From Escherichia coli (GTDB lineage Bacteria; Pseudomonadota; Gammaproteobacteria; Enterobacterales; Enterobacteriaceae), in NCBI RefSeq assembly GCF_013122565.1, contig NZ_CP053258.1: DNA of 64,000 nucleotides; one strand, given 5' to 3'. The position numbers were made by a program, and so were the translations under genes. Below the pieces are notes generated by a model, which made no database searches, was not told where the DNA came from, and saw only the letters and a program-made list of their open reading frames with translations. Below are positions 4,067 through 50,153 of this stretch, piece by piece. Within the stretch, counting starts at the first letter, position 1. Every line of letters starts with the position of its first letter.

Positions 4067-4456
4067 GTTGTGTAACCTGTTGTTAATTACATCCGATCTC
4101 ACAGCGTGGGGCATGGATGGGGCAAACTCACTCTATTTCTGGTTTAAAATGGATACCTGATCATGAACGTTTTCTGCCATCCACGCTCCGTAACGCGATA
4201 ACCCCCTGAATATCAGAGTGTCTCATTTGACACATCACCACGTCGGATGTTGTTACGACCACAGACGCAACAGTAACCTCTGGATAATTTAATCTTTGTT
4301 GATGTTTTTATTCATATTCCGGGCTAGGGAAATAATCAGGCATAATTGTGTCACTGGAATAGAGGTTTCTTGTGGCGCATGTGGAAGGAGCGTCTACTAT
4401 TGTCTAATAGAGATTTCTTATTACGCAGTTTTGTTCATCACTAATCTCCAGGTTTA

Positions 4457-5125: not shown

Positions 5126-5233
5126 AGAAACCTCCTGAGAGCACACTGAAAAGAATAGGAGAGGGGGCGGGTAAAATCTATGTGGTACAGAGGCAACGAT
5201 ATTCCCGCTGTGGGCCACAGCGGGAATGAGGGA

Positions 5234-5467
5234 TTACTTCTGAATTAAATAACGAATGGTCGGCCCGTCTTGCTGAATATCCAGCACCGTATAGCCGTGA
5301 TTACGCGCATCCAGTGGAATATTATTGATCGACTGCGGACAGTCGCTCACCACTTCCAGGATTTCCCCTTTTTTTAACTGCGGCATCGCCTCAAGAGTTG
5401 CGACTGCCGGATAAGGGCAGGGTTCACCCACCATATCAAGGCGGTAATCAGGAACGATATTTTTCAT
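5234..5467 (-). CDS. yedF: TusA-like sulfurtransferase-fold protein YedF
   Basis: ORF 5234..5467, 77 aa, contains the CPxP motif (EPCPYPAV) typical of TusA-like proteins; overlaps yedE start by 4 nt. Confidence 0.88.
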   Translation of the reverse strand: MKNIVPDYRLDMVGEPCPYPAVATLEAMPQLKKGEILEVVSDCPQSINNIPLDARNHGYTVLDIQQDGPTIRYLIQK

Positions 5468-6669
5468 GCGATCTCCTTAGCAGTCTGCGGTGCCGCACGG
5501 CGGAAGAAGCGTTTTTCCCAGCCGATAATCAACATCAGCGCAGCAAACAACAGCAAATATGTCACCAGCAGGCCACCCATCGGGCCAAAGGTTTTCAGCA
5601 GGTTAATTTTGTCCCAGTCGGTGGCCAGCGCCGGAGCGAAATCATCCCAGTAATACGCCAGAATCGTTGAGCCGATCACGTTGCCCAGACCGACCCACCA
5701 GTAGTGCACCTGGCCTTCTACCGCGCGGTACATCCAGCCGGTTTCGCAGCCGCCTGCCAGCACGATGCCAAAACCAAACAGTAAACCACCAATTACCGCG
5801 TTTGGTCCTGCCCACATGATTTTGGGTTCAACACCTAACTGTACGTAACTGAAGATCCCGATGGCACTCACCGCCATACCGATAATGATTGCTTTCGCCA
5901 TATGGGTACGTCCGGTGATCCACATATCGCGGAACGCCGAAGTAAAGCAGATTTGCGCACGTTCAATCAGTAAACCAAAGCCGACGCCAAACAGCATTGC
6001 CAGCCCCAGTTTTGGTTGGTTCATCGCCGTGAGCAGCGCCCAGCCCTGCATACCGAAAAAGACCAGCATCCCGAGACGAAAACGACGCCGCGCCTGATCC
6101 GGTTTTTGCGTCAGCGGTGAGGCGGCAGAAACTTTCTGCATTTTCACGGGAATACGGAAGATGGGCAGCAGGGTAAAGCGCGCGCCAAACCATGAACCAA
6201 TGGCAGTGGCGATGGCAAAGAACCAGGCATGCAGCGAGAACTGAGGAATACCGGTAAAGAACGCCGCCAGGTTACAGCCCATTGCCAGACGCGCGCCAAA
6301 ACCAGCGATAATACCGCCAATGATGGCCTGCATAATGCGGATACGGCTGCGTGGCATGCGCAGTTTGACATTGTTGGCCCACAGCGCTGCGGCAAAGCAG
6401 CCGCCAAACATACCGAGGATCATCATCCCGTCGATGCGGGTTAATGGCGATCCTTCCAGATGGATAATTTTAAAGTAACCCCACTCTTCAGCATGGACGC
6501 CGAACAGCTGCAGGAGCTGGCCGCCCCAACGGGTAAATTCACCCGTGACAGCCCAAAAGGTGCCAGTGATGCCAAAATAGTAAGTGGAGAGAATACCCGC
6601 CGCGATGACCGCGGGGATGGGCGCCCAGAATTTAATCAACCAGGCGTGTTTGAATTGCTGCCATGACAT
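5464..6669 (-). CDS. yedE: YedE/YeeE-family inner membrane transporter (selenium/sulfur-related)
   Basis: ORF 5464..6669, 401 aa, highly hydrophobic multi-TM protein; matches YedE in length and N-terminus; co-operonic with yedF. Confidence 0.88.
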   Translation of the reverse strand: MSWQQFKHAWLIKFWAPIPAVIAAGILSTYYFGITGTFWAVTGEFTRWGGQLLQLFGVHAEEWGYFKIIHLEGSPLTRIDGMMILGMFGGCFAAALWANNVKLRMPRSRIRIMQAIIGGIIAGFGARLAMGCNLAAFFTGIPQFSLHAWFFAIATAIGSWFGARFTLLPIFRIPVKMQKVSAASPLTQKPDQARRRFRLGMLVFFGMQGWALLTAMNQPKLGLAMLFGVGFGLLIERAQICFTSAFRDMWITGRTHMAKAIIIGMAVSAIGIFSYVQLGVEPKIMWAGPNAVIGGLLFGFGIVLAGGCETGWMYRAVEGQVHYWWVGLGNVIGSTILAYYWDDFAPALATDWDKINLLKTFGPMGGLLVTYLLLFAALMLIIGWEKRFFRRAAPQTAKEIA

Positions 6670-6855
6670 GAATGTAGCCTCTGAACTCAGAAGGTTTGAA
6701 ACAAGAGTCGCGAATCATACATCAAGCAAATTTATTTTCGGGGTAATAATTCACAAAAATAATAGTTAGATCAAATTTCTCGCTGAACCTGGAAAGGCTG
6801 GCGACATCAGGGCTTTAATGCCACAATCCTCTTTTCTTCTCATGCAGGACGAATG

Positions 6856-7269
6856 ATGAAAAAACTCGCAATTGCAGGCGCGCTCATGTTGCTGGCGGGC
6901 TGTGCCGAAGTCGAAAACTATAACAATGTCGTGAAAACCCCCGCGCCGGACTGGCTGGCGGGCTACTGGCAGACCAAAGGGCCGCAACGTGCGCTGGTCA
7001 GTCCGGAAGCGATAGGCAGCCTGATTGTCACTAAAGCGGGCGATACCCTGGATTGCCGTCAGTGGCAGCGGGTGATTGCCGTGCCGGGTAAGTTGACATT
7101 GATGTCTGATGATCTCACTAACGTTACCGTAAAACGTGAGCTGTACGAGGTTGAGCGTGACGGTAACACCATTGAGTACGATGGTATGACGATGGAGCGT
7201 GTGGATCGCCCGACAGCAGAGTGTGCCGCCGCGCTGGATAAAGCGCCGTTACCGACGCCACTGCCGTAA
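6856..7269 (+). CDS. yedD: Predicted lipoprotein YedD
   Basis: ORF 6853..7269 (MMKKLAIAGALMLLAGCAEV...), signal peptide plus LAGC lipobox; K-12 YedD is 137 aa, so start at the second ATG (6856) is likely. Confidence 0.85.
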   Translation: MKKLAIAGALMLLAGCAEVENYNNVVKTPAPDWLAGYWQTKGPQRALVSPEAIGSLIVTKAGDTLDCRQWQRVIAVPGKLTLMSDDLTNVTVKRELYEVERDGNTIEYDGMTMERVDRPTAECAAALDKAPLPTPLP

Positions 7270-7302
7270 TGAAATCTCCCCGGCTTGCTGCCGGGGATGA
7301 AT

Positions 7303-8790
7303 TTAAATCACCTCTTCGATAACCCACACGCTAACGCTGCCGCCGTTGCAAAAGAAGGTCGCTTCGCCGTTTTCGTCGGTTACTACACTCTCTTGCCGGT
7401 TCCCAAGAAAATCACGCCAGGTTTTATTGCCGTAATTCTCTCCTAAATGAATGGTTTTTTCGCCATCATCTCCGTTCGACATGACCACCACGCAGCCGGG
7501 ATATTCGTCGGTGCCACTGCGGCTAAAGGCAATGCAGTTCGGATGGTCGAAAAATAACGTCTGTACACCGTGGGCGAAACGCTGACGGGCGAGAATTAAC
7601 TCATCAAGTTGTTCGATTATTGGCATATCTATCGGATAGGTTTGCCCGTCACCGCCGACATCTTCGTAATGTGCACCGTAGAGATCCGGATAGAACACCG
7701 AAGGAACGCCATTTTCCCGCAACAAAATTAAGGCATATGCCAGCGGTTTAAACCACGGTTCGACCGGCGCTTCGAGGGCTTGCAACGGTTGGGTGTCGTG
7801 GTTGGCAACGAGCGTCACGGCGTGGAAAGGATCGGCTTCCACTAATGTACCCGTGAAAATCTGCGTCATGTCGTAGTCGCGCCCCATGCGCGATGCTTCA
7901 TGGAATTTCATCTGCAGCGGTGCATCGAACAGCATGGTTTTGCCTTCCACCTGATCAATATACGTTTGCAGTTTATCGACTTCATGCGACCAGTACTCTG
8001 CCACAATAAACAGCGGCTTTGGCGCAACTTCCTGTACGTGTTCGATCCACTCTTTATAAAACCACGCCGGTATATGTTTGACCGCATCAAGACGAAAACC
8101 GTCGCATTGTGTTTGTTCCATCACCCAGCGCGCCCAGTATTTAATCTCTTCCGTCACGGCATGATTGCGGAAATCGATATTCTCACCCATCAGATAATCG
8201 AAATTACCGAGTTCATCATCAACCTGATCGTTCCAGCCTTCGCCGGTGTAGTCGTTAACAATTTTAAATATGCCATCTTCATCAGGATTTTCGATATGGT
8301 CGATACCGCTAAAACATTTGAAATCCCAGATAAACTGCGAGTATTGCCCGGCACGAGCGGGGAAGGTGTAACGCGTCCAGCCTTCGCACTCAATGATTTC
8401 TTCGTCAATTTGCGTACGGTCATCAGCATTTACACGCTGCACGCGAATAGCTTCTTTTTCATCCGCGCCCATTTTGTGGTTGACTACCACATCCAACAGC
8501 ACCGCAATGTCATTACGTTTCAGAGCGTCAATGGCGGCCAGCAGTTGTGCTTTATCGCCATATTTAGTAGGGATGCTGCCTTTCTGATCAAACTCGCCTA
8601 AATCAAATAAATCATAGGAGTCGTAGCCGACCGAATACCCGCCCGATGCGCCTTTATAGGCGGGCGGCAACCAGACCATATTGATACCAATATCATTAAA
8701 ACCGTCGGCGCGCTCGGCCAGTTCAGGCCAGAGCTTACCGCCTTCCGGGTAATACCAGTGAAAACATTGTAACAGCGTGGGATTACGCAT
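7303..8790 (-). CDS. amyA: Cytoplasmic alpha-amylase AmyA
   Basis: ORF 7303..8790, 495 aa, [21 protein letters not shown]...; GH13 motifs (e.g. GFRLDAVKH) visible; length matches AmyA. Confidence 0.95.
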
Positions 8791-8867
8791 TCTTCGACTC
8801 CATTCAAGGGGAACATTAGAAGCGTAGCCGTAATCAGATTATTCGCGAGCCATTAGCTCGTTAAGAT

Positions 8868-9233
8868 TCACGAGAAGTTATCTTGCGGAGCCAGCACAAA
8901 GCCGCCCTGATCGCCATAGGCACTTAACACCGATTTTTGCACCGATGACTGACCGACCAGTTTCGCCAGTTCATTCATCCGAATCTGTAATAACTGCTTT
9001 ACCTTGCTTTCGTTATCGAGAATCAGGCGCAGCATCGGGCGGAGCTGCTCCTGCATCGTGGTGGACGGGTCAATCTCATCAGTCAGATGTGCAATCTCCT
9101 GCACCGCATTCACATACGCCATTTCGCTGGCGATGAGTTCGTCCCATTGTTCTTCCGTTGCCAGGCGTAACATGAGCTGGCTTTTTTCGACGAGTTGTTG
9201 CCAGGCGAAATACAAATGCGGTGCGTGGTTCAT
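8868..9233 (-). CDS. fliT: Flagellar chaperone / anti-FlhDC factor FliT
   Basis: ORF 8868..9233, 121 aa; last gene of the fliD-fliS-fliT operon; matches FliT. Confidence 0.9.
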
Positions 9234-9643
9234 CAGACTGGGTCCTGAATCAAAGAAGGGGAGAGTAACGACTCTTTCCAGGCATCGGCAATATTGCGCA
9301 TTAATGCTTCCACTTCTTCGACTGCGGAGACATCGTTGCGTAAATTGGCTTGCAGCAAACGCCTGACCATATAGCTATAAAGAGCAATCAAGTTTTGGGT
9401 TAATTCGTCTTTGCTCTCTTCATCAAGACTCACCCGAAGTCCGTTCTCAATGATGTTGATCGCTTTTGACAAAGAGACGCCTTTGCCTTGCTGATTGTTG
9501 TCCTGCATAAACAGGCGCGCTCTAACCAGTGCGCTCAGCACTCCATCAAATAGCATGGTGACCAGCTGCTGCTGGCTGGCGCTCATTACGGCGCTTTCGA
9601 CGCCAATTTGTGCATAGGCCTGGGTGCCTTTTGCCGCGTACAT
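9233..9643 (-). CDS. fliS: Flagellin-specific chaperone FliS
   Basis: ORF 9233..9643, 136 aa, [34 protein letters not shown]...; matches FliS. Confidence 0.92.
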
Positions 9644-9658
9644 AGTTTCTCCTGAAGA

Positions 9659-11074
9659 TTATTTCGAGTTGCTATTTGAGGTGTCGAACTGCTGTGTCAG
9701 ATAGCTACTGGTGGAGTTAAGCGAGTTCATTAACACATCTAATTGGGTGAACTGGGCTTTATAGCGCGTCATTAAGGTATCGATACGCTCACTGGCTGCG
9801 TTGTACTGGTCGGTCAAATTATTAAGCGTTTTGCTGACGCCATCTTTTGCGGCCTGGATTATCCCGGTGGAAGAGAGCCAACTGGTCAGGTTGCTACTAA
9901 TGCCGGTGGTTACCCCTGTACTTTTACCGTCACCTATAAACATTTCACCGATGCCAGCGGCATCTTTTTTTAGCGCCGTTTGCAGTTTGTCAGTCGCGAT
10001 TTCCAGCTTGCCGGTACTGGCATCGCTGGTAATGCCAATCTGTGCCAGCGTTTTATAGTTTGAACTGCTGTGAGTATTGGCGAGCAAGGTTTTAAGCTGA
10101 GTCTGGATGGTACGCAGTGTGGAGTCACCGAGTAATGCGCCATTACTGGAGTCCTGACTTTCTGCTCCGGCATCGACAGCGGTGTATTTGGTTAAGCTAC
10201 TGAATGTATCCTGCAATGTGTTATAGGCATCCACCCATGCTTTGACCGCATTTTCAGCTTTGGATGTGTCTTTATTGATGGTCAGTGTCTGATTACCGGT
10301 GGTGACGTCATTCAGGTTGAGTGTGATATCTTCCAGCGCGTCGCTGATAGTGTTACTGCTGTTTTCAATCTCAACGTTATTGACTGTCAGTTTGGCGTTT
10401 TGCGCGGTGACGCTTTCAATCATGCCATTGCTGCTATCACCCGACGTTCCGTTGTAACCCATAAAACTTTCCAGGGCGCTGTCGCCGCTGACGCTAAGTT
10501 TCATAGCGTTATCGTTGCCCGTATCGTTAGCGGTGATGGACAGACGATATTCGCCGTTTCTCACATTGATGATACTGGCGCTGACACCAGCTTTGGCGTT
10601 GTTAATGGCATCGCGAATGCCGGAAAGTGACGAGTTAGCTGCGCTGATATCAATCGTGACCGGATCTTTACCGCCGCCTTGCTGGATGGTCAGTACGCTA
10701 TCGCTGGTGGCGATGGCAGCTTTACTGTCTTTTTGACTAATTTTTGTGGTCAGCGTTTGTGCCTGCGCCAGTTGGCTAACGCTAATGGTGTATTTCCCGG
10801 CAATCGCGCTGCCCGTGGTGGTGGCGCTGAAAGCCGATGAACTGCTGGTGGTTGAAGTGGCGGTAAATAAATCGGCTTTATTCAGTGCTGTGTTGGCTGT
10901 CTGGAAACTCTCTAGTGCACTTTTCAGCGTCCCGTAGGCGCTCAGTTTCGCGGTGTAAGAGCTTTGCTGTTTTGATATCGGCGTCAGGGTAGATTTTTCT
11001 GCCGCCTCCAGACTGTCAAGGATGCTGCTTAAATCCAGCCCCGACCCAACCCCAAGCGTTGAAATACTAGCCAT
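9659..11074 (-). CDS. fliD: Flagellar filament cap protein FliD (variant allele, 471 aa)
   Basis: ORF 9659..11074, MASISTLGVGSGLDLSSILDS...; conserved termini, divergent in the middle relative to K-12 FliD (468 aa by recollection). Confidence 0.9.
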   Translation of the reverse strand: MASISTLGVGSGLDLSSILDSLEAAEKSTLTPISKQQSSYTAKLSAYGTLKSALESFQTANTALNKADLFTATSTTSSSSAFSATTTGSAIAGKYTISVSQLAQAQTLTTKISQKDSKAAIATSDSVLTIQQGGGKDPVTIDISAANSSLSGIRDAINNAKAGVSASIINVRNGEYRLSITANDTGNDNAMKLSVSGDSALESFMGYNGTSGDSSNGMIESVTAQNAKLTVNNVEIENSSNTISDALEDITLNLNDVTTGNQTLTINKDTSKAENAVKAWVDAYNTLQDTFSSLTKYTAVDAGAESQDSSNGALLGDSTLRTIQTQLKTLLANTHSSSNYKTLAQIGITSDASTGKLEIATDKLQTALKKDAAGIGEMFIGDGKSTGVTTGISSNLTSWLSSTGIIQAAKDGVSKTLNNLTDQYNAASERIDTLMTRYKAQFTQLDVLMNSLNSTSSYLTQQFDTSNSNSK

Positions 11075-11116
11075 ATAAATTCCTTAATCATGCGACGTAT
11101 AGAACGAATACCGGGG

Positions 11117-11143
11117 TTATCGGCGTAAGCGGGGCAAAGTTTA
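11117..11143 (-). promoter_or_regulatory. sigma-28 (FliA) class 3 promoter for fliDST
   Basis: + strand reads ttatcggc-N11-aaagttta, i.e. on the minus strand TAAACTTT-N11-GCCGATAA, a near-perfect match to the sigma-28 consensus TAAAGTTT-N11-GCCGATAA. Confidence 0.7.
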
Positions 11144-11216
11144 CGATTTATTTTTTGGCTTAATGACACGAACAGCAACGAGGAAGGGGAGTATTTCGAC
11201 CGCTAGAAAAAAATTC

Positions 11217-11243
11217 TAAAGGTTGTGAGTGACCAGACGATAA
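11217..11243 (+). promoter_or_regulatory. sigma-28 (FliA) class 3 promoter for fliC
   Basis: taaaggtt-N11-gacgataa upstream of fliC; close to the sigma-28 consensus. Confidence 0.65.
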
Positions 11244-11319
11244 CAGGGTTGACGGCGACGAAGCCGAAGGGTGGAAGCCCAATACTTAAACCGTAGACTT
11301 GAAAACAGGAAAATGAATC

Positions 11320-12663
11320 ATGGCACAAGTCATTAATACCAACAGCCTCTCGCTGATCACTCAGAACAACATCAACAAAAACCAGTCTGCGCTGTCGACT
11401 TCTATCGAGCGCCTCTCTTCTGGTCTGCGCATTAACAGCGCTAAAGATGACGCTGCGGGCCAGGCGATTGCTAACCGCTTCACTTCTAACATCAAAGGTC
11501 TGACTCAGGCCGCACGTAACGCCAACGACGGTATCTCTCTGGCGCAGACCACTGAAGGCGCACTGTCTGAAATCAACAACAACTTGCAGCGTGTTCGTGA
11601 ACTGACCGTTCAGGCCACTACCGGTACTAACTCTGATTCTGACCTGTCTTCAATCCAGGACGAAATCAAATCCCGTCTCGATGAAATTGACCGCGTATCC
11701 GGTCAGACTCAGTTCAACGGCGTGAACGTACTGGCAAAAGATGGCTCGATGAAAATTCAGGTCGGTGCAAATGATGGTCAGACAATCAGCATTGATTTGC
11801 AGAAGATTGATTCTTCTACTTTAGGGTTAAATGGTTTTTCTGTTTCCAAAAATGCAGTATCTGTTGGTGATGCTATTACTCAATTGCCTGGCGAGACGGC
11901 AGCCGATGCACCAGTAACCATCAAGTTTGATGATTCAGTAAAAACTGATTTAAAACTGACCGATGCTTCAGGGTTAAGTCTGCATAACCTCAAAGATGAA
12001 AATGGTAATTTAACTAACCAGTATGTTGTACAGAATGGCGGAAAATCTTACGCTGCTACAGTCGCTGCCAATGGTAATGTTACGCTGAACAAAGCAAATG
12101 TAACCTACAGCGATGTCGCAAACGGTATTGATACCGCAACGCAGTCAGGCCAGTTAGTTCAGGTTGGTGCAGATTCTACCGGTACGCCAAAAGCATTCGT
12201 GTCTGTCCAAGGTAAAAGCTTTGGCATTGATGACGCCGCCTTGAAGAATAACACTGGTGATGCTACCGCTACTCCACCGGGAGCATCTGGGACAACAGTT
12301 GTCGCAGCGTCAATTCATCTGAGTACGGGCAAAAACTCTGTAGACGCTGATGTAACGGCTTCCACTGAATTCACAGGTGCTTCAACCAACGATCCACTGA
12401 CTCTGCTGGACAAAGCTATCGCATCTGTTGATAAATTCCGTTCTTCTTTGGGGGCGGTACAGAACCGTCTGAGCTCCGCTGTAACCAACCTGAACAACAC
12501 CACCACCAACCTGTCTGAAGCGCAGTCCCGTATTCAGGACGCCGACTATGCGACCGAAGTGTCCAACATGTCGAAAGCGCAGATTATCCAGCAGGCAGGT
12601 AACTCCGTGCTGTCCAAAGCTAACCAGGTACCGCAGCAGGTTCTGTCTCTGCTGCAGGGTTAA
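11320..12663 (+). CDS. fliC: Flagellin FliC (H-antigen), 447 aa, non-K-12 serotype
   Basis: ORF 11320..12663; conserved N-terminal (MAQVINTNSLSLITQNNINKNQSALSTSIERLSSGLRINSAKDDAAGQAIANRF...) and C-terminal (...QNRLSSAVTNLNNTTTNLSEAQSRIQDADYATEVSNMSKAQIIQQAGNSVLSKANQVPQQVLSLLQG) flagellin domains flank a distinct central region; K-12 FliC is 498 aa by recollection. Confidence 0.92.
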   Translation: MAQVINTNSLSLITQNNINKNQSALSTSIERLSSGLRINSAKDDAAGQAIANRFTSNIKGLTQAARNANDGISLAQTTEGALSEINNNLQRVRELTVQATTGTNSDSDLSSIQDEIKSRLDEIDRVSGQTQFNGVNVLAKDGSMKIQVGANDGQTISIDLQKIDSSTLGLNGFSVSKNAVSVGDAITQLPGETAADAPVTIKFDDSVKTDLKLTDASGLSLHNLKDENGNLTNQYVVQNGGKSYAATVAANGNVTLNKANVTYSDVANGIDTATQSGQLVQVGADSTGTPKAFVSVQGKSFGIDDAALKNNTGDATATPPGASGTTVVAASIHLSTGKNSVDADVTASTEFTGASTNDPLTLLDKAIASVDKFRSSLGAVQNRLSSAVTNLNNTTTNLSEAQSRIQDADYATEVSNMSKAQIIQQAGNSVLSKANQVPQQVLSLLQG

Positions 12664-35016: not shown

Positions 35017-35518
35017 AACCTGTTCCTTATTCTGTGAACTTCAGGTGACATTAAAGCTTTACTCCTAATGGAGAAACGACGCAATCCCAACTCAGTCAAA
35101 CAGGTAAATATTAGTCTGATTATTAGTAAAGACAATTAAACAATTGCTTCCGGTGATCATATGATTTCAAATGTAATTATAAGAAAATAGTGTACTGATT
35201 CTCCGCATTAAACAAGTGGTTAATATATGTAAAACATTTTATTAACATTAAGTTGATTGTTGCCTTTCTTTGTATTTAATCAGTTTGTTGTGCGGTAAGT
35301 GTCTGTTTAAAAATAGCTTATCTGGTATTGCATGAAAGTGATTATTTATAGCAGATGATTATTTACGGTGAGTTATTTTAACTGTGCGCAACATCCCATT
35401 TCGATTATTCCTGTTTCATTTTTGCTTGCTAGCGTTGCGAAAAACTTTTTAACAGATTGAAATACACCCAAAACAAAAGTATGACTTATACATTTATGTT
35501 AATTAATTGAGTGTTTTG

Positions 35519-35795: not shown

Positions 35796-36146
35796 ATGCA
35801 TACCTCCGAGTTGCTGAAACACATTTATGACATCAACTTGTCATATTTACTACTTGCACAGCGTCTGATTGTTCAGGACAAAGCGTCCGCTATGTTTCGT
35901 CTCGGCATAAATGAAGAAATGGCGACAACGTTAGCGGCACTGACTCTTCCGCAAATGGTTAAGCTGGCAGAAACCAATCAACTGGTTTGTCACTTCCGTT
36001 TTGACAGCCACCAGGCGATTACTCAGTTGACGCAAGATTCCCGCGTTGACGATCTCCAGCAAATTCATACCGGCATCATGCTCTCAACACGCTTGCTGAA
36101 TGATGTTAATCAGCCTGAAGAAGCGCTGCGCAAGAAAAGGGCCTGA
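35796..36146 (+). CDS. flhD: Flagellar master regulator subunit FlhD
   Basis: ORF 35787..36146 (GTG at 35787; ATG at 35796 gives [30 protein letters not shown]..., 116 aa). Confidence 0.9.
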
Positions 36147-36148
36147 TC

Positions 36149-36727
36149 ATGAGTGAAAAAAGCATTGTTCAGGAAGCGCGGGATATTCAGCTGGCAATGG
36201 AATTGATCACCCTGGGCGCTCGTTTGCAGATGCTGGAAAGCGAAACACAGTTAAGTCGCGGACGCCTGATAAAACTCTATAAAGAACTGCGCGGAAGCCC
36301 ACCGCCGAAAGGCATGCTGCCATTCTCAACCGACTGGTTTATGACCTGGGAACAAAACGTTCATGCTTCGATGTTCTGTAACGCATGGCAGTTTTTACTG
36401 AAAACAGGCTTGTGTAATGGCGTCGATGCAGTGATCAAAGCCTACCGTTTATACCTTGAACAGTGCCCGCAAGCAGAAGACGGACCGCTGCTGGCATTAA
36501 CCCGTGCCTGGACATTGGTGCGGTTTGTTGAAAGTGGATTACTGCAACTTTCCAGCTGCAACTGCTGCGGCGGCAATTTTATTACCCACGCTCACCAGCC
36601 TGTTGGCAGCTTTGCCTGCAGCTTATGTCAACCGCCATCCCGGGCAGTAAAAAGACGTAAACTTTCCCAGAATCCTGCCGATATTATCCCACAACTGCTG
36701 GATGAACAGAGAGTACAGGCTGTTTAA
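36149..36727 (+). CDS. flhC: Flagellar master regulator subunit FlhC
   Basis: ORF 36149..36727, 192 aa, [27 protein letters not shown]...; zinc-binding cysteines near the C-terminus. Confidence 0.95.
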
Positions 36728-36751
36728 CTGATACGGTGTGGCGCAACATTC

Positions 36752-36786
36752 CAGCAGCGGTAACGACGTACCGCTGCTTTTTTTTG
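36752..36786 (+). terminator. Rho-independent terminator after flhC
   Basis: Hairpin cagcagcggtaacgacgtaccgctgc followed by tttttttt. Confidence 0.65.
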
Positions 36787-36853
36787 CCCCAATCGCGCGT
36801 TAACGCCTGACGACTGAACATCCTGTCATGGTCAACAGTGGAAGGATGATGTC

Positions 36854-37737
36854 GTGCTTATCTTATTAGGTTACCTGGTTGTTCTCGGTACAGTTTTCGG
36901 CGGTTATTTGATGACCGGTGGAAGCCTTGGAGCACTCTATCAACCCGCTGAACTGGTGATTATTGCCGGTGCAGGGATTGGGTCGTTTATCGTCGGCAAT
37001 AATGGCAAAGCGATTAAAGGCACGCTGAAGACGCTGCCGTTGCTGTTTCGTCGCTCCAAATACACCAAAGCAATGTATATGGATCTGCTGGCTCTGCTTT
37101 ATCGGTTGATGGCGAAATCGCGGCAGATGGGGATGTTTTCGCTGGAACGTGATATTGAAAATCCCCGTGAGAGCGAGATCTTCGCCAGCTACCCACGCAT
37201 CCTTGCGGATAGCGTCATGCTTGATTTTATCGTCGATTATCTGCGTCTGATTATCAGCGGTCACATGAACACCTTCGAAATCGAAGCCCTGATGGATGAA
37301 GAGATTGAGACGCACGAAAGCGAGGCAGAAGTCCCGGCGAACAGTCTGGCGCTGGTCGGGGACTCACTTCCGGCGTTTGGTATTGTCGCGGCTGTAATGG
37401 GGGTCGTTCACGCGTTAGGTTCAGCCGATCGTCCTGCCGCCGAGCTGGGGGCGCTTATCGCACATGCGATGGTGGGGACTTTCCTCGGCATTTTATTGGC
37501 TTACGGATTTATTTCCCCATTAGCAAGTGTTTTACGTCAGAAAAGCGCCGAAACCAGCAAAATGATGCAGTGCGTCAAAGTCACACTGCTTTCTAATCTG
37601 AACGGTTACGCACCGCCTATCGCCGTTGAGTTTGGTCGCAAAACGCTCTATTCCAGCGAACGTCCGTCGTTTATTGAACTGGAAGAGCATGTGCGTGCGG
37701 TGAAAAATCCGCAACAACAGACGACAACCGAGGAAGC

Positions 37738-37741
<4 letters not shown>
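36854..37741 (+). CDS. motA: Flagellar motor stator protein MotA
   Basis: ORF 36854..37741, 295 aa, [30 protein letters not shown]... Confidence 0.95.
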
Positions 37742-40633
<2,892 letters not shown>

Positions 40634-40653
40634 ATGAGTAAAAAGGTAACAAT

Positions 40654-41157
40654 ATGACCGGTATGACGAATGTAACAAAGCTGGCCAGCGAGCCGTCAGG
40701 CCAGGAATTTCTGGTATTTACCCTTGGTGATGAAGAGTACGGTATTGATATCCTGAAAGTGCAGGAGATCCGTGGCTACGATCAGGTAACACGGATTGCG
40801 AACACGCCAGCGTTTATCAAAGGCGTCACGAATCTGCGCGGCGTTATTGTGCCGATTGTTGACTTACGAATTAAGTTCAGCCAGGTGGATGTGGACTATA
40901 ACGACAACACGGTAGTTATCGTCCTGAATCTCGGACAGCGGGTGGTCGGCATCGTGGTTGACGGCGTTTCAGACGTGCTTTCATTGACGGCGGAGCAAAT
41001 TCGTCCGGCACCAGAGTTTGCCGTGACGCTTTCAACAGAATATCTCACTGGACTGGGCGCACTGGGCGACCGGATGTTGATTCTGGTGAACATCGAAAAA
41101 CTGCTGAACAGCGAAGAGATGGCGCTGTTAGATAGCGCGGCGTCAGAAGTGGCGTAA
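40654..41157 (+). CDS. cheW: Chemotaxis coupling protein CheW
   Basis: ORF 40654..41157, 167 aa, [33 protein letters not shown]... Confidence 0.95.
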
Positions 41158-41183
41158 TTCTCCCGATTTCCTCAATTGAAATG

Positions 41184-41213
41184 AACCCGATGATCTGCGC
41201 ATCGGGTTTTTTA
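41184..41213 (+). terminator. Rho-independent terminator after cheW
   Basis: Hairpin cccgatgatctgcgcatcggg followed by ttttttatttc. Confidence 0.65.
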
Positions 41214-41243
41214 TTTCAATTTCGCGGCGGGTGGCATCAGCAA

Positions 41244-41270
41244 TAAAGTTTCCCCCCTTCTTGCCGATAA
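41244..41270 (+). promoter_or_regulatory. sigma-28 class 3 promoter of the tar-tap-cheRBYZ operon
   Basis: taaagttt-N11-gccgataa: exact match to both halves of the sigma-28 consensus with 11-nt spacer, ~30 nt upstream of tar. Confidence 0.78.
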
Positions 41271-41301
41271 CGAGATTAACTTGTTTTCAGGAAGGTGCCT
41301 T

Positions 41302-42963
41302 ATGATTAACCGTATCCGCGTAGTCACGCTGTTGGTAATGGTGCTGGGGGTATTCGCACTGTTACAGCTTATTTCCGGCAGTCTGTTTTTTTCTTCCCTT
41401 CACCATAGCCAGAAGAGCTTTGTGGTTTCCAATCAATTACGGGAACAGCAGGGCGAGCTGACGTCAACCTGGGATTTAATGCTGCAAACGCGCATTAACC
41501 TGAGTCGTTCAGCGGTGCGGATGATGATGGATTCCTCCAATCAACAAAGTAACGCCAAAGTTGAATTGCTCGATAGCGCCAGGAAAACATTGGCCCAGGC
41601 CGCGACTCATTATAAAAAATTCAAAAGCATGGCACCGTTACCTGAAATGGTCGCTACCAGTCGTAATATTGATGAAAAATATAAAAACTATCACACAGCG
41701 TTAACTGAACTGATTGATTATCTTGATTATGGCAATACTGGAGCTTATTTCGCTCAGCCAACCCAGGGAATGCAAAATGCAATGGGCGAAGCGTTTGCTC
41801 AGTACGCCCTCAGCAGTGAAAAACTGTATCGCGATATCGTCACTGACAACGCAGATGATTACCGATTTGCCCAGTGGCAACTGGCGGTTATCGCGCTGGT
41901 GGTGGTATTGATTCTGCTGGTGGCGTGGTACGGCATTCGTCGTATGTTGCTTACACCGCTGGCAAAAATTATTGCGCATATTCGCGAAATCGCCGGTGGT
42001 AACCTGGCGAATACTCTGACCATTGACGGACGCAGTGAAATGGGCGACCTGGCGCAGAGCGTTTCACATATGCAACGCTCTTTGACTGACACCGTCACTC
42101 ATGTGCGTGAAGGTTCAGATGCCATCTATGCCGGTACCCGTGAAATTGCGGCGGGCAACACCGATCTTTCCTCCCGTACGGAACAGCAGGCATCGGCGCT
42201 GGAAGAAACTGCCGCCAGCATGGAGCAGCTCACCGCAACAGTGAAGCAAAACGCCGATAACGCCCGCCAGGCCTCGCAACTGGCGCAAAGTGCCTCCGAC
42301 ACCGCCCAGCATGGCGGCAAAGTAGTGGATGGCGTAGTGAAAACGATGCATGAGATCGCCGATAGTTCGAAGAAAATCGCCGACATTATCAGCGTTATCG
42401 ACGGTATTGCCTTCCAGACTAATATCCTCGCGCTGAATGCCGCTGTTGAAGCCGCGCGAGCGGGTGAACAGGGCCGTGGTTTTGCCGTGGTGGCGGGCGA
42501 AGTGCGTAATCTTGCCAGCCGCAGCGCCCAGGCGGCAAAAGAGATCAAAGCCCTCATTGAAGACTCCGTCTCGCGCGTTGATACCGGTTCGGTGCTGGTC
42601 GAAAGCGCCGGGGAAACAATGAACAATATCGTCAATGCTGTCACTCGCGTGACTGACATTATGGGCGAGATTGCATCGGCATCGGATGAACAGAGCCGTG
42701 GCATCGATCAAGTCGCATTGGCGGTTTCGGAAATGGATCGCGTCACGCAACAGAACGCATCGCTGGTGCAGGAATCAGCTGCCGCCGCAGCTGCGCTGGA
42801 AGAACAGGCCAGTCGTTTAACGCAAGCGGTTTCCGCGTTTCGTCTGGCAGCCAGCCCACTCACCAATAAACCGCAAACACCATCCCGTCCTGCCAGTGAG
42901 CAACCACCGGCACAGCCACGACTGCGAATTGCTGAACAAGATCCAAACTGGGAAACATTTTGA
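41302..42963 (+). CDS. tar: Methyl-accepting chemotaxis protein II, Tar (aspartate/maltose)
   Basis: ORF 41281..42963 trimmed to [22 protein letters not shown]... at 41302, 553 aa; C-terminal NWETF pentapeptide (CheR/CheB tether). Confidence 0.92.
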
Positions 42964-43008
42964 TGAGTATTTACTAACGCGGTCATTGCCGCCTGATGGG
43001 GAGCGTTG

Positions 43009-44610
43009 ATGTTTAATCGTATTCGAATTTCGACCACGCTGTTTTTAATTTTGATTCTCTGCGGGATCTTGCAGATTGGCAGTAACGGCATGTCTTTTTG
43101 GGCATTTCGCGACGATTTGCAACGACTGAATCAGGTCGAGCAGAGCAATCAGCAACGTGCGGCATTAGCGCAAACTCGGGCGGTAATGTTACAGGCCAGT
43201 ACCGCGCTGAACAAAGCGGGCACTCTGACGGCACTTAGCTATCCGGCGGATGACATTAAAACGTTGATGACGACGGCGCGCGCCAGTCTGACGCAATCCA
43301 CTACGCTGTTTAAAAGTTTTATGGCGATGACTGCGGGCAACGAGCACGTCAGGGCGTTGCAAAAAGAGACGGAGAAAAGTTTTGCCCGCTGGCACAACGA
43401 TCTCGAACATCAGGCGACCTGGCTTGAAAGTAATCAACTTTCGGATTTCCTCACTGCGCCGGTGCAGGAATCACAGAATGCGTTTGACGTTAACTTTGAG
43501 GCCTGGCAGCTGGAGATCAACCATGTGCTGGAAGCCGCCAGTGCGCAAAGCCAGCGTAACTATCAGATTTCGGCGCTGGTGTTTATCAGCATGATTATTG
43601 TTGCGGCGATCTACATCAGCAGTGCGCTGTGGTGGACGCGCAAGATGATTGTTCAACCACTGGCCATTATCGGTAGCCATTTTGACAGCATTGCTGCGGG
43701 TAATCTGGCGCGTCCGATTGCGGTATATGGTCGCAACGAGATCACCGCCATTTTTGCCAGCCTGAAGACCATGCAGCAGGCTTTGCGTGGGACGGTAAGT
43801 GATGTGCGTAAGGGAAGCCAGGAGATGCACATTGGTATCGCGGAGATTGTCGCAGGCAATAACGATCTCTCAAGTCGTACCGAACAGCAGGCGGCATCGC
43901 TGGCACAAACGGCCGCCAGTATGGAGCAATTAACCGCCACGGTAGGGCAAAACGCCGATAACGCACGACAGGCGTCGGAACTGGCAAAAAATGCCGCGAC
44001 AACGGCGCAGGCGGGCGGTGTTCAGGTCAGTACCATGACTCACACCATGCAGGAGATCGCCACCAGCTCGCAAAAAATTGGCGACATTATCAGCGTTATC
44101 GACGGAATTGCTTTCCAGACCAATATTCTGGCCCTGAATGCGGCAGTGGAAGCGGCTCGCGCCGGAGAGCAGGGGCGTGGTTTTGCGGTAGTGGCAGGTG
44201 AAGTGCGCAATCTTGCCAGCCGTAGCGCGCAGGCAGCAAAAGAGATCAAAGGGCTGATCGAAGAGTCAGTCAATCGTGTCCAGCAGGGTTCGAAACTGGT
44301 GAATAACGCCGCCGCGACCATGACCGATATTGTCAGTTCGGTGACCCGCGTGAACGACATTATGGGAGAAATTGCTTCGGCCTCGGAAGAACAACGGCGG
44401 GGGATTGAGCAGGTTGCGCAGGCTGTCAGCCAGATGGATCAGGTGACACAGCAGAACGCCTCCTTGGTAGAAGAAGCGGCGGTGGCAACGGAACAACTGG
44501 CGAATCAGGCCGACCATCTTTCGTCGCGTGTGGCGGTATTTACCCTTGAAGAACATGAAGTAGCACGACATGAGTCGGCGCAGTTACAAATTGCGCCAGT
44601 GGTATCCTGA
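43009..44610 (+). CDS. tap: Methyl-accepting chemotaxis protein IV, Tap (dipeptide/pyrimidine)
   Basis: ORF 43006..44610; ATG at 43009 gives MFNRIRISTTLFLILILCGILQ..., 533 aa; lacks the NWETF tail, as expected for Tap. Confidence 0.92.
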   Translation: MFNRIRISTTLFLILILCGILQIGSNGMSFWAFRDDLQRLNQVEQSNQQRAALAQTRAVMLQASTALNKAGTLTALSYPADDIKTLMTTARASLTQSTTLFKSFMAMTAGNEHVRALQKETEKSFARWHNDLEHQATWLESNQLSDFLTAPVQESQNAFDVNFEAWQLEINHVLEAASAQSQRNYQISALVFISMIIVAAIYISSALWWTRKMIVQPLAIIGSHFDSIAAGNLARPIAVYGRNEITAIFASLKTMQQALRGTVSDVRKGSQEMHIGIAEIVAGNNDLSSRTEQQAASLAQTAASMEQLTATVGQNADNARQASELAKNAATTAQAGGVQVSTMTHTMQEIATSSQKIGDIISVIDGIAFQTNILALNAAVEAARAGEQGRGFAVVAGEVRNLASRSAQAAKEIKGLIEESVNRVQQGSKLVNNAAATMTDIVSSVTRVNDIMGEIASASEEQRRGIEQVAQAVSQMDQVTQQNASLVEEAAVATEQLANQADHLSSRVAVFTLEEHEVARHESAQLQIAPVVS

Positions 44611-44628
44611 AGTGATTGAGAAGGCGCT

Positions 44629-45489
44629 ATGACTTCATCTCTGCCCTGTGGGCAAACGTCTTTATTGTTACAGATGACCGAGCGCCTGGCGCTTTCCGAC
44701 GCGCATTTTCGGCGGATAAGTCAATTGATCTATCAACGAGCCGGGATCGTCCTTGCCGACCATAAACGCGACATGGTTTACAACCGACTGGTTCGTCGTT
44801 TGCGTTCGCTGGGACTGACGGATTTCGGTCATTATCTGAACTTGCTGGAATCTAATCAGCACAGCGGTGAGTGGCAGGCGTTTATCAATTCGCTGACCAC
44901 GAATCTGACGGCATTTTTCCGTGAGGCACACCATTTCCCTCTGCTCGCGGATCATGCACGTCGCCGTTCTGGCGAGTATCGCGTATGGAGCGCGGCGGCT
45001 TCAACCGGCGAAGAGCCATACAGCATTGCGATGACGCTGGCTGACACATTGGGCACCGCGCCCGGACGCTGGAAAGTGTTTGCCAGCGATATCGACACCG
45101 AAGTGCTGGAAAAAGCCAGAAGCGGTATTTATCGCCATGAAGAGTTGAAAAACCTGACGCCGCAGCAACTGCAACGGTATTTCATGCGAGGGACGGGACC
45201 GCATGAAGGGCTGGTACGCGTGCGTCAGGAGCTGGGGAACTATGTTGATTTTGCCCCGCTGAATTTACTGGCGAAACAGTACACCGTGCCGGGGCCGTTT
45301 GATGCGATCTTCTGTCGTAACGTCATGATCTACTTCGATCAAACTACTCAGCAGGAGATTTTGCGCCGCTTTGTTCCGCTCCTTAAACCCGACGGATTGC
45401 TGTTTGCGGGTCACTCTGAAAACTTTAGCCACCTTGAGCGCCGCTTCACGCTGCGTGGTCAGACGGTGTATGCGCTAAGTAAGGATTAA
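44629..45489 (+). CDS. cheR: Chemotaxis methyltransferase CheR
   Basis: ORF 44629..45489, 286 aa, [32 protein letters not shown]... Confidence 0.95.
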
Positions 45490-45491
45490 CG

Positions 45492-46945
<1,454 letters not shown>

Positions 46946-46955
46946 GGATGCGACT

Positions 46956-47600
46956 ATGATGCAACCATCAATCAAACCTGCTGACGAGCATTCAGCTGGC
47001 GATATCATTGCGCGCATCGGTAGCCTGACGCGTATGCTGCGCGACAGTTTGCGGGAACTGGGACTGGATCAGGCCATTGCCGAAGCGGCGGAAGCCATCC
47101 CCGATGCGCGCGATCGTTTGTACTATGTTGTGCAGATGACCGCCCAGGCTGCGGAGCGGGCGCTGAACAGTGTTGAGGCGTCACAACCGCATCAGGATCA
47201 AATGGAGAAATCAGCAAAAGCGTTAACCCAACGTTGGGATGACTGGTTTGCCGATCCGATTGACCTTGCCGACGCCCGTGAACTGGTAACAGATACGCGG
47301 CAATTTCTGGCAGATGTACCCGGACATACCAGCTTTACTAACGCGCAACTGCTGGAAATCATGATGGCACAGGATTTTCAGGATCTCACCGGGCAGGTTA
47401 TTAAGCGGATGATGGATGTCATTCAGGAGATCGAACGTCAGTTGCTGATGGTGTTGTTGGAAAACATCCCGGAACAGGAGTCGCGTCCAAAACGTGAAAA
47501 CCAGAGTTTGCTTAATGGACCTCAGGTCGATACCAGCAAAGCTGGTGTGGTAGCCAGTCAGGATCAGGTGGACGATTTGTTGGATAGTCTTGGATTTTGA
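46956..47600 (+). CDS. cheZ: CheY-P phosphatase CheZ
   Basis: ORF 46926..47600 trimmed to [24 protein letters not shown]... at 46956, 214 aa. Confidence 0.92.
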
Positions 47601-47618
47601 TTTGTATTGCCTGAACTT

Positions 47619-47643
47619 CGGCCTGCGCGATGATGCCAGGCCG
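47619..47643. terminator. Hairpin between convergent cheZ and the inserted nucleotidyltransferase gene
   Basis: Inverted repeat cggcctg...caggccg 19 nt after the cheZ stop; no strong T-run, so weak. Confidence 0.35.
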
Positions 47644-47687
47644 ATAGCAGGGTGGCGAGTATCGTTCAGGGAGTACGTGGAGGATGG

Positions 47688-48440
47688 TTATTTGTAGTTT
47701 GATAATTTTAGATCAGCGAAGCGTGTTTGTTGCGCCAGTAAATTTATCAACGCATTAAATTGTGAACGAGAAAATGACGATGACTGGTAGTGCAGTACAT
47801 CGTAATGATGCCAAACTTCATAACGTTTTTTCGTCAGTTCATGGTGCAAGAAATGACAGAGTTCCGGACCTAAACTCTTTACCTGCTTAGTAAAAATAGT
47901 GCGTAAAATCTTCGTTACCGAACCGCTTGGATTGGGGTTAGTATGAAGAACAAGTTCAAGATGTCTGCGATTTAAGTCGGTCAAATAATTATCTTTACTG
48001 ATAATTTTTTCACTACGTAGATCATAGAGCACGGCATCCCAACTCATTAGCGTAGTGTTTAACAGACTTGATTCATCCTCACAAAATATAAGTTTTTCCC
48101 GAAATGCCCATGTCTCATTGAGGTTCCAGATATCAAATTCGAAGTCGTGATAACGAAAACGGATCCCACCGAACTTATTAAAACGCAGTTGTTTAACGGG
48201 CAATTCAGCCAATGTCCGGAAGAGTTCCTCACGGGAGCGACCGATGACGATATCAAGGTCTGAAGAAAATCCTTCGACGCCAAACAAGCCTAAGTCACGC
48301 ACCATCCCGCCAAAAATCCAGGCCGGACAGGAACAGGCCAGAGTATCAAGTAATACTCTGGCTTTCTTATGCTCATCACTAAGCGTAAAAAAATCGGCGA
48401 TACGCTGTTCAAGCTGTTGGGTGTTTGAGACCACATTCAT
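47688..48440 (-). CDS. Pol-beta-superfamily nucleotidyltransferase (CCA/MNT/SMODS-like fold), function unknown; downstream gene of inserted operon
   Basis: ORF 47688..48440, 250 aa; nucleotidyltransferase signature ...AWIFGGMVRDLGLFGVEGFSSDLDIVIG... (hG[GS]-x9-13-DhDh) with a third acidic residue in ...HDFEFDIWNL...; start overlaps upstream gene by 32 nt; no equivalent gene between cheZ and flhB in K-12 as I recall; AT-rich. Confidence 0.7.
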   Translation of the reverse strand: MNVVSNTQQLEQRIADFFTLSDEHKKARVLLDTLACSCPAWIFGGMVRDLGLFGVEGFSSDLDIVIGRSREELFRTLAELPVKQLRFNKFGGIRFRYHDFEFDIWNLNETWAFREKLIFCEDESSLLNTTLMSWDAVLYDLRSEKIISKDNYLTDLNRRHLELVLHTNPNPSGSVTKILRTIFTKQVKSLGPELCHFLHHELTKKRYEVWHHYDVLHYQSSSFSRSQFNALINLLAQQTRFADLKLSNYK

Positions 48441-49917
48441 ACAGTGATTTTAGCTCATCGTGAAGGCGCATTAAATAACTATCCGTCATGCCTGAGATTG
48501 CGTCGGTAAGCAACTGCGCTTCTTTATAAAGAATAGGGAGTGTATTGGCGGGATCTTCAAACACACGGCGATAATTTTCAGAGATTGTCCCGTAAGCATA
48601 GCGACCAAAGGGAGTATCCGATAGGTATTCTTCACGAGAAACAAAAAGGTTATCTGCAGACGCGGACTCGCGTTCTCCGTCTCGTTCTTTCTTTGTTTTG
48701 TGTCCATGGATGCCAATCCAGAGCATATCCATCAAGTTAGTAATGTAATTAGACCCCCTAAGTTCCAGTTGCAAGACTGAACGATGAAGGTAGCCTCGTG
48801 TTCGGTCGAACATTTTCAGGGCAGTGCAGAGAGCGTGACCTTTGCTTTGCGAGATTAAATCTTTGAACGGGCAGTCACGCTGCATCAGCGTGGGTAATTG
48901 TTCGCGAAAGGCTTCAACTACGGCATTAATCAATGCACTGGTGGCATACACTCTGAACATTTGCATACTGAGTTCATTAATTTCTGCCGGTGAAAGTGCA
49001 TTTCTTTGCTCTTTCCAGGCGTCATTTTTGGCCTCTACAGCTTTAATAACATTTTCAATTACATCGTTCGACTCGGATTGTGACATCAAAAAATCACGCA
49101 AATCCTGGTATGAGGCAAATCCTTTCTTGATGGTATCTTCTGCGTCAAGCACAGAGTAGGCAATATCGTCGCAAGCTTCCATTATCCAGGTAAATGGGTG
49201 GCGGCAACCGGCATCATTACCTGGTACGCCAAGGCCCGTTTGCTGCCAGACATCCATGACAACCTCATGCTCAGAATAGAAAAAACCGTGTTTTTTCCAA
49301 TGTTTGTCCGATGAATATGAAGCTCGGGGATATTTGATCAGTGCAGCCAGCGTGGCATAGGTCAGATTCAGACCAAAGTTATCGTTAATAATTTGTAATT
49401 TGGTAACCAGGCGCAGGGTTTGTGAGTTTCCATCAAATTGCAGAAAGTCGTTATATATTTCGCTGTTTACTTCTTTATCAAGAAGGCCTGGAAGATTTTT
49501 ATTAAACCATGCGCGCATCGCTGCTTCACCTTGATGCCCAAATGGTGGATTACCGAGATCGTGTGCCAGTCCGATCGCTGCTAACAGAGCAGGAACGTCG
49601 CGTTCAACGACAATCCCCGTGGGTATTTCGCCAAAGATGTGTTCCTTCATCTCGAAAGCGAGCCTCATTCCTATTCCGCGAGCAAAGTTTGCTACTTCGT
49701 GAGAATGAGTCAGCCTCGTCCGTATACTGTCATTTTGATCTAACGGGAAAACTTGTGTTTTATCCGCCAGCCGACGAGTTGGCGCAGCAAAAAGTAATCG
49801 GTCGTAATCCCGCTCGATCTCTTGTCTTCCGCGAGCAAGGGGATGTAAAAATTCTATGCTGGTTTTTTTTAGATTATCTTTTCGACGGTTGCAGTTAAGC
49901 AATTGTTGCCATTCCAT
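48409..49917 (-). CDS. Dgt-family dNTP (dGTP) triphosphohydrolase paralogue (HD domain); upstream gene of inserted operon
   Basis: ORF 48409..49917, 502 aa; Dgt hallmark motifs: DKTQVFPLDQNDSIRTRLTHSHEV (HD histidine), GLAHDLGNPPFGHQGE (HD aspartate), FDGNSQTLRLV, HPFTWIMEACDDIAYSVLDAEDTIKKG, LTDAISGMTDSYL; RBS aagg 7-8 nt before ATG; AT-rich. Confidence 0.82.
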   Translation of the reverse strand: MEWQQLLNCNRRKDNLKKTSIEFLHPLARGRQEIERDYDRLLFAAPTRRLADKTQVFPLDQNDSIRTRLTHSHEVANFARGIGMRLAFEMKEHIFGEIPTGIVVERDVPALLAAIGLAHDLGNPPFGHQGEAAMRAWFNKNLPGLLDKEVNSEIYNDFLQFDGNSQTLRLVTKLQIINDNFGLNLTYATLAALIKYPRASYSSDKHWKKHGFFYSEHEVVMDVWQQTGLGVPGNDAGCRHPFTWIMEACDDIAYSVLDAEDTIKKGFASYQDLRDFLMSQSESNDVIENVIKAVEAKNDAWKEQRNALSPAEINELSMQMFRVYATSALINAVVEAFREQLPTLMQRDCPFKDLISQSKGHALCTALKMFDRTRGYLHRSVLQLELRGSNYITNLMDMLWIGIHGHKTKKERDGERESASADNLFVSREEYLSDTPFGRYAYGTISENYRRVFEDPANTLPILYKEAQLLTDAISGMTDSYLMRLHDELKSLYECGLKHPTA

Positions 49918-50153
49918 TTGATCGCCTTTGTAATAATTTAATTATTAGCAAACTAACAGAGAGACGGTGGGCGATTCTATAGGCTAAATGGCTAAATATC
50001 AGAACTGGAAAATGGTTCGCAAAACGTTCTGCAACTGAACCTATTTTTTGCATAAACGTCCTAAATCCCGCCTGTTTTGCCCCTTACTCAAACCATTGAA
50101 CGCTTTGCGCTCTGGCATCATTTACGCTTAATACTCTTTCCAGGATTGGCGAC

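Follow-up and report, generated by a model that had tools for sequence, protein, structure and literature searches.

A cloA-cloB gene pair between cheZ and flhB of Escherichia coli is very probably a Clover anti-phage defence operon

A stretch of 64,000 nucleotides from Escherichia coli (NCBI RefSeq assembly GCF_013122565.1, contig NZ_CP053258.1), here called the window, carries two overlapping minus-strand genes between cheZ and flhB that very probably constitute a Clover anti-phage defence operon, cloA-cloB, with a mechanism assigned by homology. The first gene, cloA (48409..49917, an ATG-initiated open reading frame (ORF)), encodes a 502-residue HD-domain protein, the predicted Clover effector and a putative triphosphohydrolase of deoxyguanosine triphosphate (dGTP). 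The second, cloB (47688..48440), encodes a 250-residue nucleotidyltransferase of the Pol-beta superfamily, which is predicted to synthesise the signal 5'-triphosphothymidyl-3'5'-thymidine (p3diT). RefSeq labels the two genes 'dgt' and 'hypothetical protein'. Clover was described as an anti-phage operon of a deoxynucleoside triphosphate (dNTP) hydrolase, CloA, and a nucleotidyltransferase, CloB (Yamaguchi et al., bioRxiv 2025, PMC12265719). In that work, CloA assembles into a clover-shaped octamer, with H263 taking part in its pi-stacking, and is a strictly dGTP-specific triphosphohydrolase that is inactive alone and is activated by deoxythymidine triphosphate (dTTP; half-maximal effective concentration ~15 uM). 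CloA is triggered by the raised dNTP pools that arise from T5-like phages, p3diT made by CloB binds beside the dTTP site and suppresses CloA, and CloB active-site mutants are toxic (PMC12265719). The tested operons came from Salmonella enterica SA20044414 and E. coli H5, and a distant Xanthomonas CloB was also found to make p3diT (PMC12265719). Our assignment of the window locus draws on the order and overlap of the two genes, on homology and conserved residues, on the fold predicted for CloB and on distribution.

Both tested operons were recognised among the loci collected for comparison. At the Salmonella enterica locus (L004), the stretch that begins with the start of CloA and ends with the stop of the following gene spans 2,203 bp, equal to the length of the cloned operon (PMC12265719, Methods), and its protein P0108 matches Protein Data Bank (PDB) entry 9P8T end to end with 1,080 bits and is thus the same protein as in the PDB entries. 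The E. coli H5 operon (L019, 8001-10200) measures 2,200 bp, again the published length (PMC12265719). Another locus of equal length, L005 with protein P0113, was considered as the H5 operon and rejected because its DNA identity is just 84.6%. The Data Availability statement of PMC12265719 prints the CloA codes as 8P9S-8P9V and the code of SpdGTPase as 9P8W, and the entries that match CloA are 9P8S-9P8V; because the Salmonella protein matches 9P8T end to end, the codes 8P9S-8P9V are evidently transposed in the preprint.

The window CloA belongs to the dGTP triphosphohydrolase subfamily TIGR01353 (285 bits, cutoff 152) and has a Pfam HD match (E=5.8e-6), scores well beyond what chance would give. 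It shares 28% identity with the housekeeping Dgt of E. coli MG1655 (b0160) over 492 columns (BLASTP, E=3e-47). Its translation contains the motif strings DKTQVFPLDQNDSIRTRLTHSHEV, HDLGNPPFGH, HPFTWIMEACDDIAY and ISGMTDSY, whose K-12 counterparts are visible in the BLASTP alignment. The initial annotation, which had described the ORF through these four motifs as an extra, divergent Dgt-family dNTPase with an intact HD site, distinct from a housekeeping dgt located elsewhere, was borne out on each of these points, and a recent duplication of the housekeeping gene as the origin of the window CloA was rejected. That paralogue can now be specified further as the probable CloA of a Clover system, paired with cloB and not an orphan. 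None of the more specific NCBIfam models reaches its cutoff with the window CloA: it scores 271 bits against the housekeeping equivalog PRK04926 (cutoff 405), on which K-12 Dgt scores 895 bits, and 358 bits against the PRK01096-type equivalog NF002205 (cutoff 439), which is nevertheless its best-scoring specific family. The tested CloAs, at 341-342 bits on NF002205, show the same NCBIfam score pattern. In a sequence search of the PDB, the cryo-electron microscopy entries of the octameric Salmonella CloA (9P8S-9P8V) scored 636 bits (E=4.5e-190), compared with 184 bits for 2PGS of the next-best family and 133 bits for E. coli Dgt (1e-37). Identity to the tested CloAs is 60-65%, namely 60% to the E. 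coli H5 protein and 61% (BLASTP) to 65% (MAFFT) to the Salmonella protein.

We mapped every residue named in PMC12265719 onto the window CloA and then onto a set of nine CloAs (Salmonella, E. coli H5, the window, Enterobacter, Pseudescherichia, Cronobacter, Cedecea, Shewanella and Pseudomonas). All six catalytic residues of the window protein are intact on alignment, that is, the metal ligands H71, H119, D120 and D250 and the catalytic dyad H128/E131, which correspond to H69, H117, D118, D242, H126 and E129 of Salmonella CloA. The dGTP-site residues are identical at 11 of 11 positions to those of Salmonella CloA. The initial annotation held that substrate specificity cannot be read from the sequence, a view we do not share: because all 11 dGTP contacts of the strictly dGTP-specific Salmonella enzyme are identical, specificity of the window CloA for dGTP can be inferred. 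The regulatory pockets are also retained. In Salmonella numbering, the dTTP-activator pocket (R47, D61, Q172, K256, S418, N420, A444, T449 and Y452) is identical at all nine positions, and the p3diT pocket (T25, R29, R34, D37, R38, F41, N75, N181, Q311 and R314) at nine of ten, T25 being replaced by L27 as the only change. Both pockets are essentially invariant across the nine CloAs. K-12 Dgt (PDB 4X9E) resembles the window CloA in fold, metal ligands, HE dyad and most dGTP contacts, but keeps only five of the nine dTTP-pocket residues (four lacking) and three of the ten p3diT-pocket residues (seven lacking). Therefore, judged from these alignments, the dTTP and p3diT pockets are what separates the window CloA from the housekeeping enzyme.

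The window CloB is less similar to the tested proteins, with 35% identity to Salmonella CloB (E=9e-55) and 41% to E. coli H5 CloB (E=2e-54). Its sequence gave no NCBIfam, PADLOC or PDB match, and the Pfam PolyA_pol match was sub-threshold (E=0.099), so that its identity rests on the literature, pairwise alignment and fold prediction. Across an alignment of 36 CloB homologues, G44, G45, R48, D49, D61, D63 and D103 are invariant. The active-site motif [D/E]h[D/E]...h[D/E]h is present as D61-x-D63...D103, the catalytic Asp triad shared with the tested CloBs, and D61 and D63 align with Salmonella D71 and D73, which were mutated in PMC12265719. The AlphaFold model (predicted local distance difference test score 92.3, predicted template modelling (TM) score 0.89) resembles the head and neck of class II CCA-adding enzymes and poly(A) polymerases, with which CloB also shares the GGxVRD...DxD motif; Foldseek returned 46 matches at E<=0.001, the best E being 1.5e-8, with TM scores of 0.5-0.6 at 13-18% sequence identity. 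Class II CCA-adding enzymes and poly(A) polymerases add nucleotides to a 3'-OH without a template, a chemistry to which p3diT synthesis by CloB may be analogous. Unlike the CCA-adding enzymes, CloB has only about 250 residues and lacks the tRNA-binding body and tail domains, an architecture that in the model would fit an enzyme extending the 3'-OH of a free nucleotide by a single nucleotide. The CloB product is a dinucleotide signal and not an extended RNA (PMC12265719).

The two genes are tightly linked in the window and beyond it. cloB starts 32 nt before cloA ends (48409..48440, minus strand), and this overlap implies a single operon, probably with coupled translation. We scanned species-representative genomes with the CloB alignment and obtained 38 loci from Gamma-, Beta- and Alphaproteobacteria, in 37 of which a CloA homologue lies directly upstream on the same strand; the 38th is cut by a contig end. 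At every homologous locus inspected, including those of Salmonella and E. coli H5, cloA and cloB are adjacent or overlapping and stand in the same order. The initial annotation had tied the gene to a partner nucleotidyltransferase and to defence, and the match of the pair to published Clover supports this link. Alternatively, the window CloA could be a stand-alone defensive dGTPase of the type reported by Tal et al. 2022, in which case the neighbouring gene would be unrelated. SpdGTPase of Shewanella putrefaciens (NF041026; PDB 9P8W), the representative of that family, is like CloA an HD-domain dGTPase that defends by dGTP depletion, but it acts as a hexamer that is constitutively active and lacks a partner gene, and its defence is strong against T7 but weak against T5 (PMC12265719). 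The PADLOC dGTPase model PDLC02374 does match the window CloA with 238 bits. Because housekeeping K-12 Dgt scores alike (236.7 bits), we rejected this match as a sign of a defence role, and it does not discriminate in favour of a stand-alone enzyme. The anti-phage dGTPase models of NCBIfam stay far below cutoff (NF041026, 182 bits against 400; NF003701, 153 bits against 383), SpdGTPase is distant from the window CloA (89 bits against 636 for Salmonella CloA), so that the latter is not of the Tal type, and cloB both overlaps cloA and co-occurs with it at 37 of 37 assessable loci. A stand-alone dGTPase is therefore very unlikely here.

By homology with the tested operons, the window locus would work as follows, its enzymatic activities, ligands, phage range and oligomeric state all being predicted from theirs. 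CloA would be a multimeric HD-domain enzyme that hydrolyses dGTP specifically and is inactive alone. Rising dTTP, as in the remodelling of dNTP pools by T5-like phages, would switch it on allosterically, and the resulting depletion of dGTP would block phage DNA replication. CloB, a short nucleotidyltransferase with a CCA-adding-enzyme fold, would join two thymidine nucleotides into p3diT. This signal would bind beside the dTTP site, in a pocket at the interface of the CloA dimer, and raise the dTTP threshold, which would prevent uninfected cells from intoxicating themselves. Hailong and Panoptes/MISS are comparable in that a nucleotidyltransferase signal keeps an effector off until infection, a parallel drawn in PMC12265719, but they use other effectors and other signals (oligodeoxyadenylate in Hailong, 2'3'-c-di-AMP in Panoptes/MISS).

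The window operon agrees with the tested ones in gene order, in the overlap of cloB with the end of cloA and in the HD fold family, and it belongs to a sub-lineage of the already described Clover that is distinct from both. Several observations weigh against reading it simply as Clover. In CloA, the octamer pi-stacking residue H263 is Q271, Q427, a stabiliser of the suppressed state, is not conserved, and T25 of the p3diT pocket is L. A lineage-specific loop insertion (48622..48693, minus strand) of about 20 extra, mostly charged residues (~409-432 in the alignments) sits just before the DTPFGRY...ISENY segment with the dTTP contacts S446 and N448, and with it the window CloA reaches 502 residues as against 471 in the tested proteins. 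The loop segment is 33 residues long in the window and 13 in the CloAs of Salmonella, E. coli H5, Shewanella and Pseudomonas; it has 28-33 residues in Pseudescherichia, Cronobacter and Cedecea, and its length varies within the cheZ-adjacent clade. CloB is just 35-41% identical to the tested CloBs, and with 250 residues against 276-277 it lacks about 10 N-terminal and about 17 C-terminal residues. PADLOC (2023) contains no Clover model, its dGTPase model does not separate CloA from Dgt, and no recognisable defence island or mobile element holds the locus. The low CloB identity, the insertion beside the dTTP-contacting helix and the substitutions of H263, Q427 and T25 could suit a Clover-like pair with different signals, in which CloB makes another product or the loop alters the activating dNTP or its level, with another phage range. 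However, the base-specific contacts are identical both for the two p3diT thymines (Q311, D37 and N75) and for dTTP (D61, T449, R47 and Y452), and even the distant Xanthomonas CloB makes p3diT (PMC12265719), so we consider different signals improbable. In the Clover operon proposed here, thresholds or signals may still be altered by the inserted loop and by the divergence of CloB.

The window covers the flagellar and chemotaxis region of E. coli and is collinear with K-12 (fliH...fliC...flhDC-motAB-cheAW-tar-tap-cheRBYZ, then flhBAE-argS-...-cmoAB). Comparison with K-12 by blastn showed that an 85-bp stretch of the cheZ-flhB intergenic region, resembling repetitive extragenic palindromic sequences, is swapped for an insert of 2,435 bp (47615..50049, not assigned to a strand). 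The insert contains exactly two genes, cloA and cloB, and has a guanine-plus-cytosine (GC) content of 0.439 compared with 0.503 for the whole window. A repeat scan of the boundaries and the window ORFs revealed no terminal direct or inverted repeats, integrase or transposase around it. cheZ is convergent with cloB, and cloA is divergent from flhB, with a 236-bp spacer between them. A GC-rich hairpin between cheZ and cloB (47618..47644, no strand) is a possible bidirectional terminator: folding of 47598-47692 gave -38 kcal/mol (z=-3.28), and none of 200 shuffled sequences was as stable. In the spacer upstream of cloA, a consensus scan found a sigma-70-like promoter match (49974..50002, minus strand, 9/12 matches), which is weak evidence as such sites are no more numerous than in shuffled sequence; the promoter and terminator scans also gave nothing above shuffled sequence. 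When the cloA-flhB spacers of five genera were aligned, only the flhB-proximal part was conserved, also in K-12, and no common cloA regulatory motif was found.

The insert was found in 106-107 of 5,426 complete E. coli genomes (~2%), always chromosomal and in single copy, and in every record listed for a query that included the flanks it lies between cheZ and flhB. H5-type Clover is present in 8-9 complete E. coli genomes, and in strain H5 it lies within an integrase island at tRNA-Sec. The housekeeping dgt, situated between mtn and degP in K-12, occurs in 5,424 of the 5,426 genomes; therefore nearly all Clover carriers have both genes. Over the core region 36000-47600 (11.6 kb), identity to the complete E. 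coli genomes of the collection does not exceed 98.7%, and the Clover insert shares at most 99.0% identity with that of any carrier. Therefore, the source lineage is not closely represented among the 5,426 genomes.

Clover pairs adjoining cheZ were found in at least nine genera of Enterobacteriaceae, E. coli included, mostly between cheZ and flhB (besides 47615-50049 of the window, the cheZ-adjacent loci are L007, L013-L015, L017, L025-L030, L032, L035 and L057). In two Enterobacter species, two Pseudescherichia, Escherichia sp. ESNIH1, the metagenome-assembled genome UBA7338, Cronobacter and Cedecea, the pair is flanked by flhB and cheZ and keeps the same orientation. It adjoins cheZ with no flhB within 6 kb in two Atlantibacter species and Pluralibacter. 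This location within the flagellar and chemotaxis cluster, shared by many Enterobacteriaceae and divergent from flhB, together with the absent mobile-element context, would suit a metabolic second dGTPase or an accessory of the flagellar regulon that plays no role in phage defence. Such a role can be given hardly any credence, considering that the protein retains the allosteric pockets peculiar to the defence enzyme, that close relatives elsewhere stand beside McrBC/Mrr, type I restriction-modification genes or in an integrase island, that the distribution is patchy (2% of E. coli), and that decayed or insertion sequence (IS)-disrupted copies, typical of accessory immune genes, occur. In two Buttiauxella species, partial CloA/CloB matches stand alone between flhB and cheZ (L035, 4763-6561; L057, 5740-6228) and appear to be decayed Clover remnants at this site. 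In Enterobacter hormaechei CP056155.1 (L012, 2365-5038), an IS3-family transposase splits cloA into fragments of 396 and 87 residues and leaves cloB intact, which looks like natural inactivation of a toxic effector.

Returning to the Clover operon, its history at the cheZ site was considered from divergence and composition. Compared with the window, CloA of the other genera shows 62-68% and CloB 45-53% identity, and both are thereby much more divergent than the flanking FlhA, CheY, CheZ and FlhB (75-97%); in each host, CloA and CloB have a lower GC content than the flanks. Within E. coli, cloA diverges by 1.3% and cloB by 0.5%, compared with 1.6% for both cheZ and flhB. Both genes look constrained, which counts in favour of the Clover reading: relative to the allele of sequence type 648 (ST648), codon differences number 11 synonymous and 8 non-synonymous in cloA, and three and one in cloB. 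The lateral acquisition proposed in the initial annotation is plausible given the presence in 2% of genomes and the GC content of 0.44 against 0.50. A recent mobile-element insertion, however, fits less well: because cheZ-adjacent pairs are widespread and, within E. coli, the insert and its flanks show comparable divergence, long residence with frequent loss, or exchange via the conserved flanks, would fit better. A literature search for cheZ-flhB as a defence hotspot returned nothing relevant, and a preference of Clover for this site is not described in the literature consulted. One may further speculate that cheZ-adjacent Clover is an old site-specific resident and not island cargo, and that its flhB-divergent layout or its charged loop gives behaviour unlike that of the published systems, for instance co-expression with the motility regulon, or a dTTP/p3diT threshold that is shifted and goes along with another phage range; this reading we hold to be unlikely.

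At loci away from cheZ, other neighbours were observed. The same block always lies upstream of the H5- and Salmonella-type operons (L019, 3434-7616; L004 and L005, 1449-5671), comprising a PfkB kinase-nucleoside 2-deoxyribosyltransferase fusion, a QueC-like 7-cyano-7-deazaguanine synthase, two hypothetical proteins, an OGG-like glycosylase and a Dam-like methylase. The H5 copy of this block, possibly a linked module for DNA modification or defence, falls within the integrase island at tRNA-Sec. In Pseudomonas sp. AK106 (L010, 214-11404), Clover has Mrr/McrBC restriction genes on one side and, on the other, nrdAB, which encode the host's ribonucleotide reductase and are noteworthy neighbours of a system sensing dNTP pools.

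Elsewhere in the window, 76 bp at 4324-4400 stand in place of about 1.9 kb of K-12 (2010546-2012440; yedL and the yedN pseudogene). The yedK-fliD block that follows (4400-12384) is 91.4% identical to K-12 compared with about 98.5% in the rest of the window, megablast gave no match to K-12 for the middle of fliC (11811-12384), and the fliC ORF encodes 447 aa against 498 aa in K-12, which suggests a different H antigen with a recombined neighbourhood. At 35491-35498, the IS1 upstream of flhD in MG1655 is absent, as expected of a non-laboratory strain.

Taken as Clover, genes that RefSeq carries as 'dgt' and a 'hypothetical protein' become an identifiable immune operon with a published mechanism. 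On this reading, E. coli carries two distinct Clover lineages at different loci, one at cheZ-flhB (106 genomes) and the H5 type (8-9 genomes). Automated defence annotation through the PADLOC dGTPase model can over-call Dgt and miss the CloB partner. With its loop insertion and short CloB, the window operon is a natural variant that may serve for probing how the dTTP/p3diT threshold is set.

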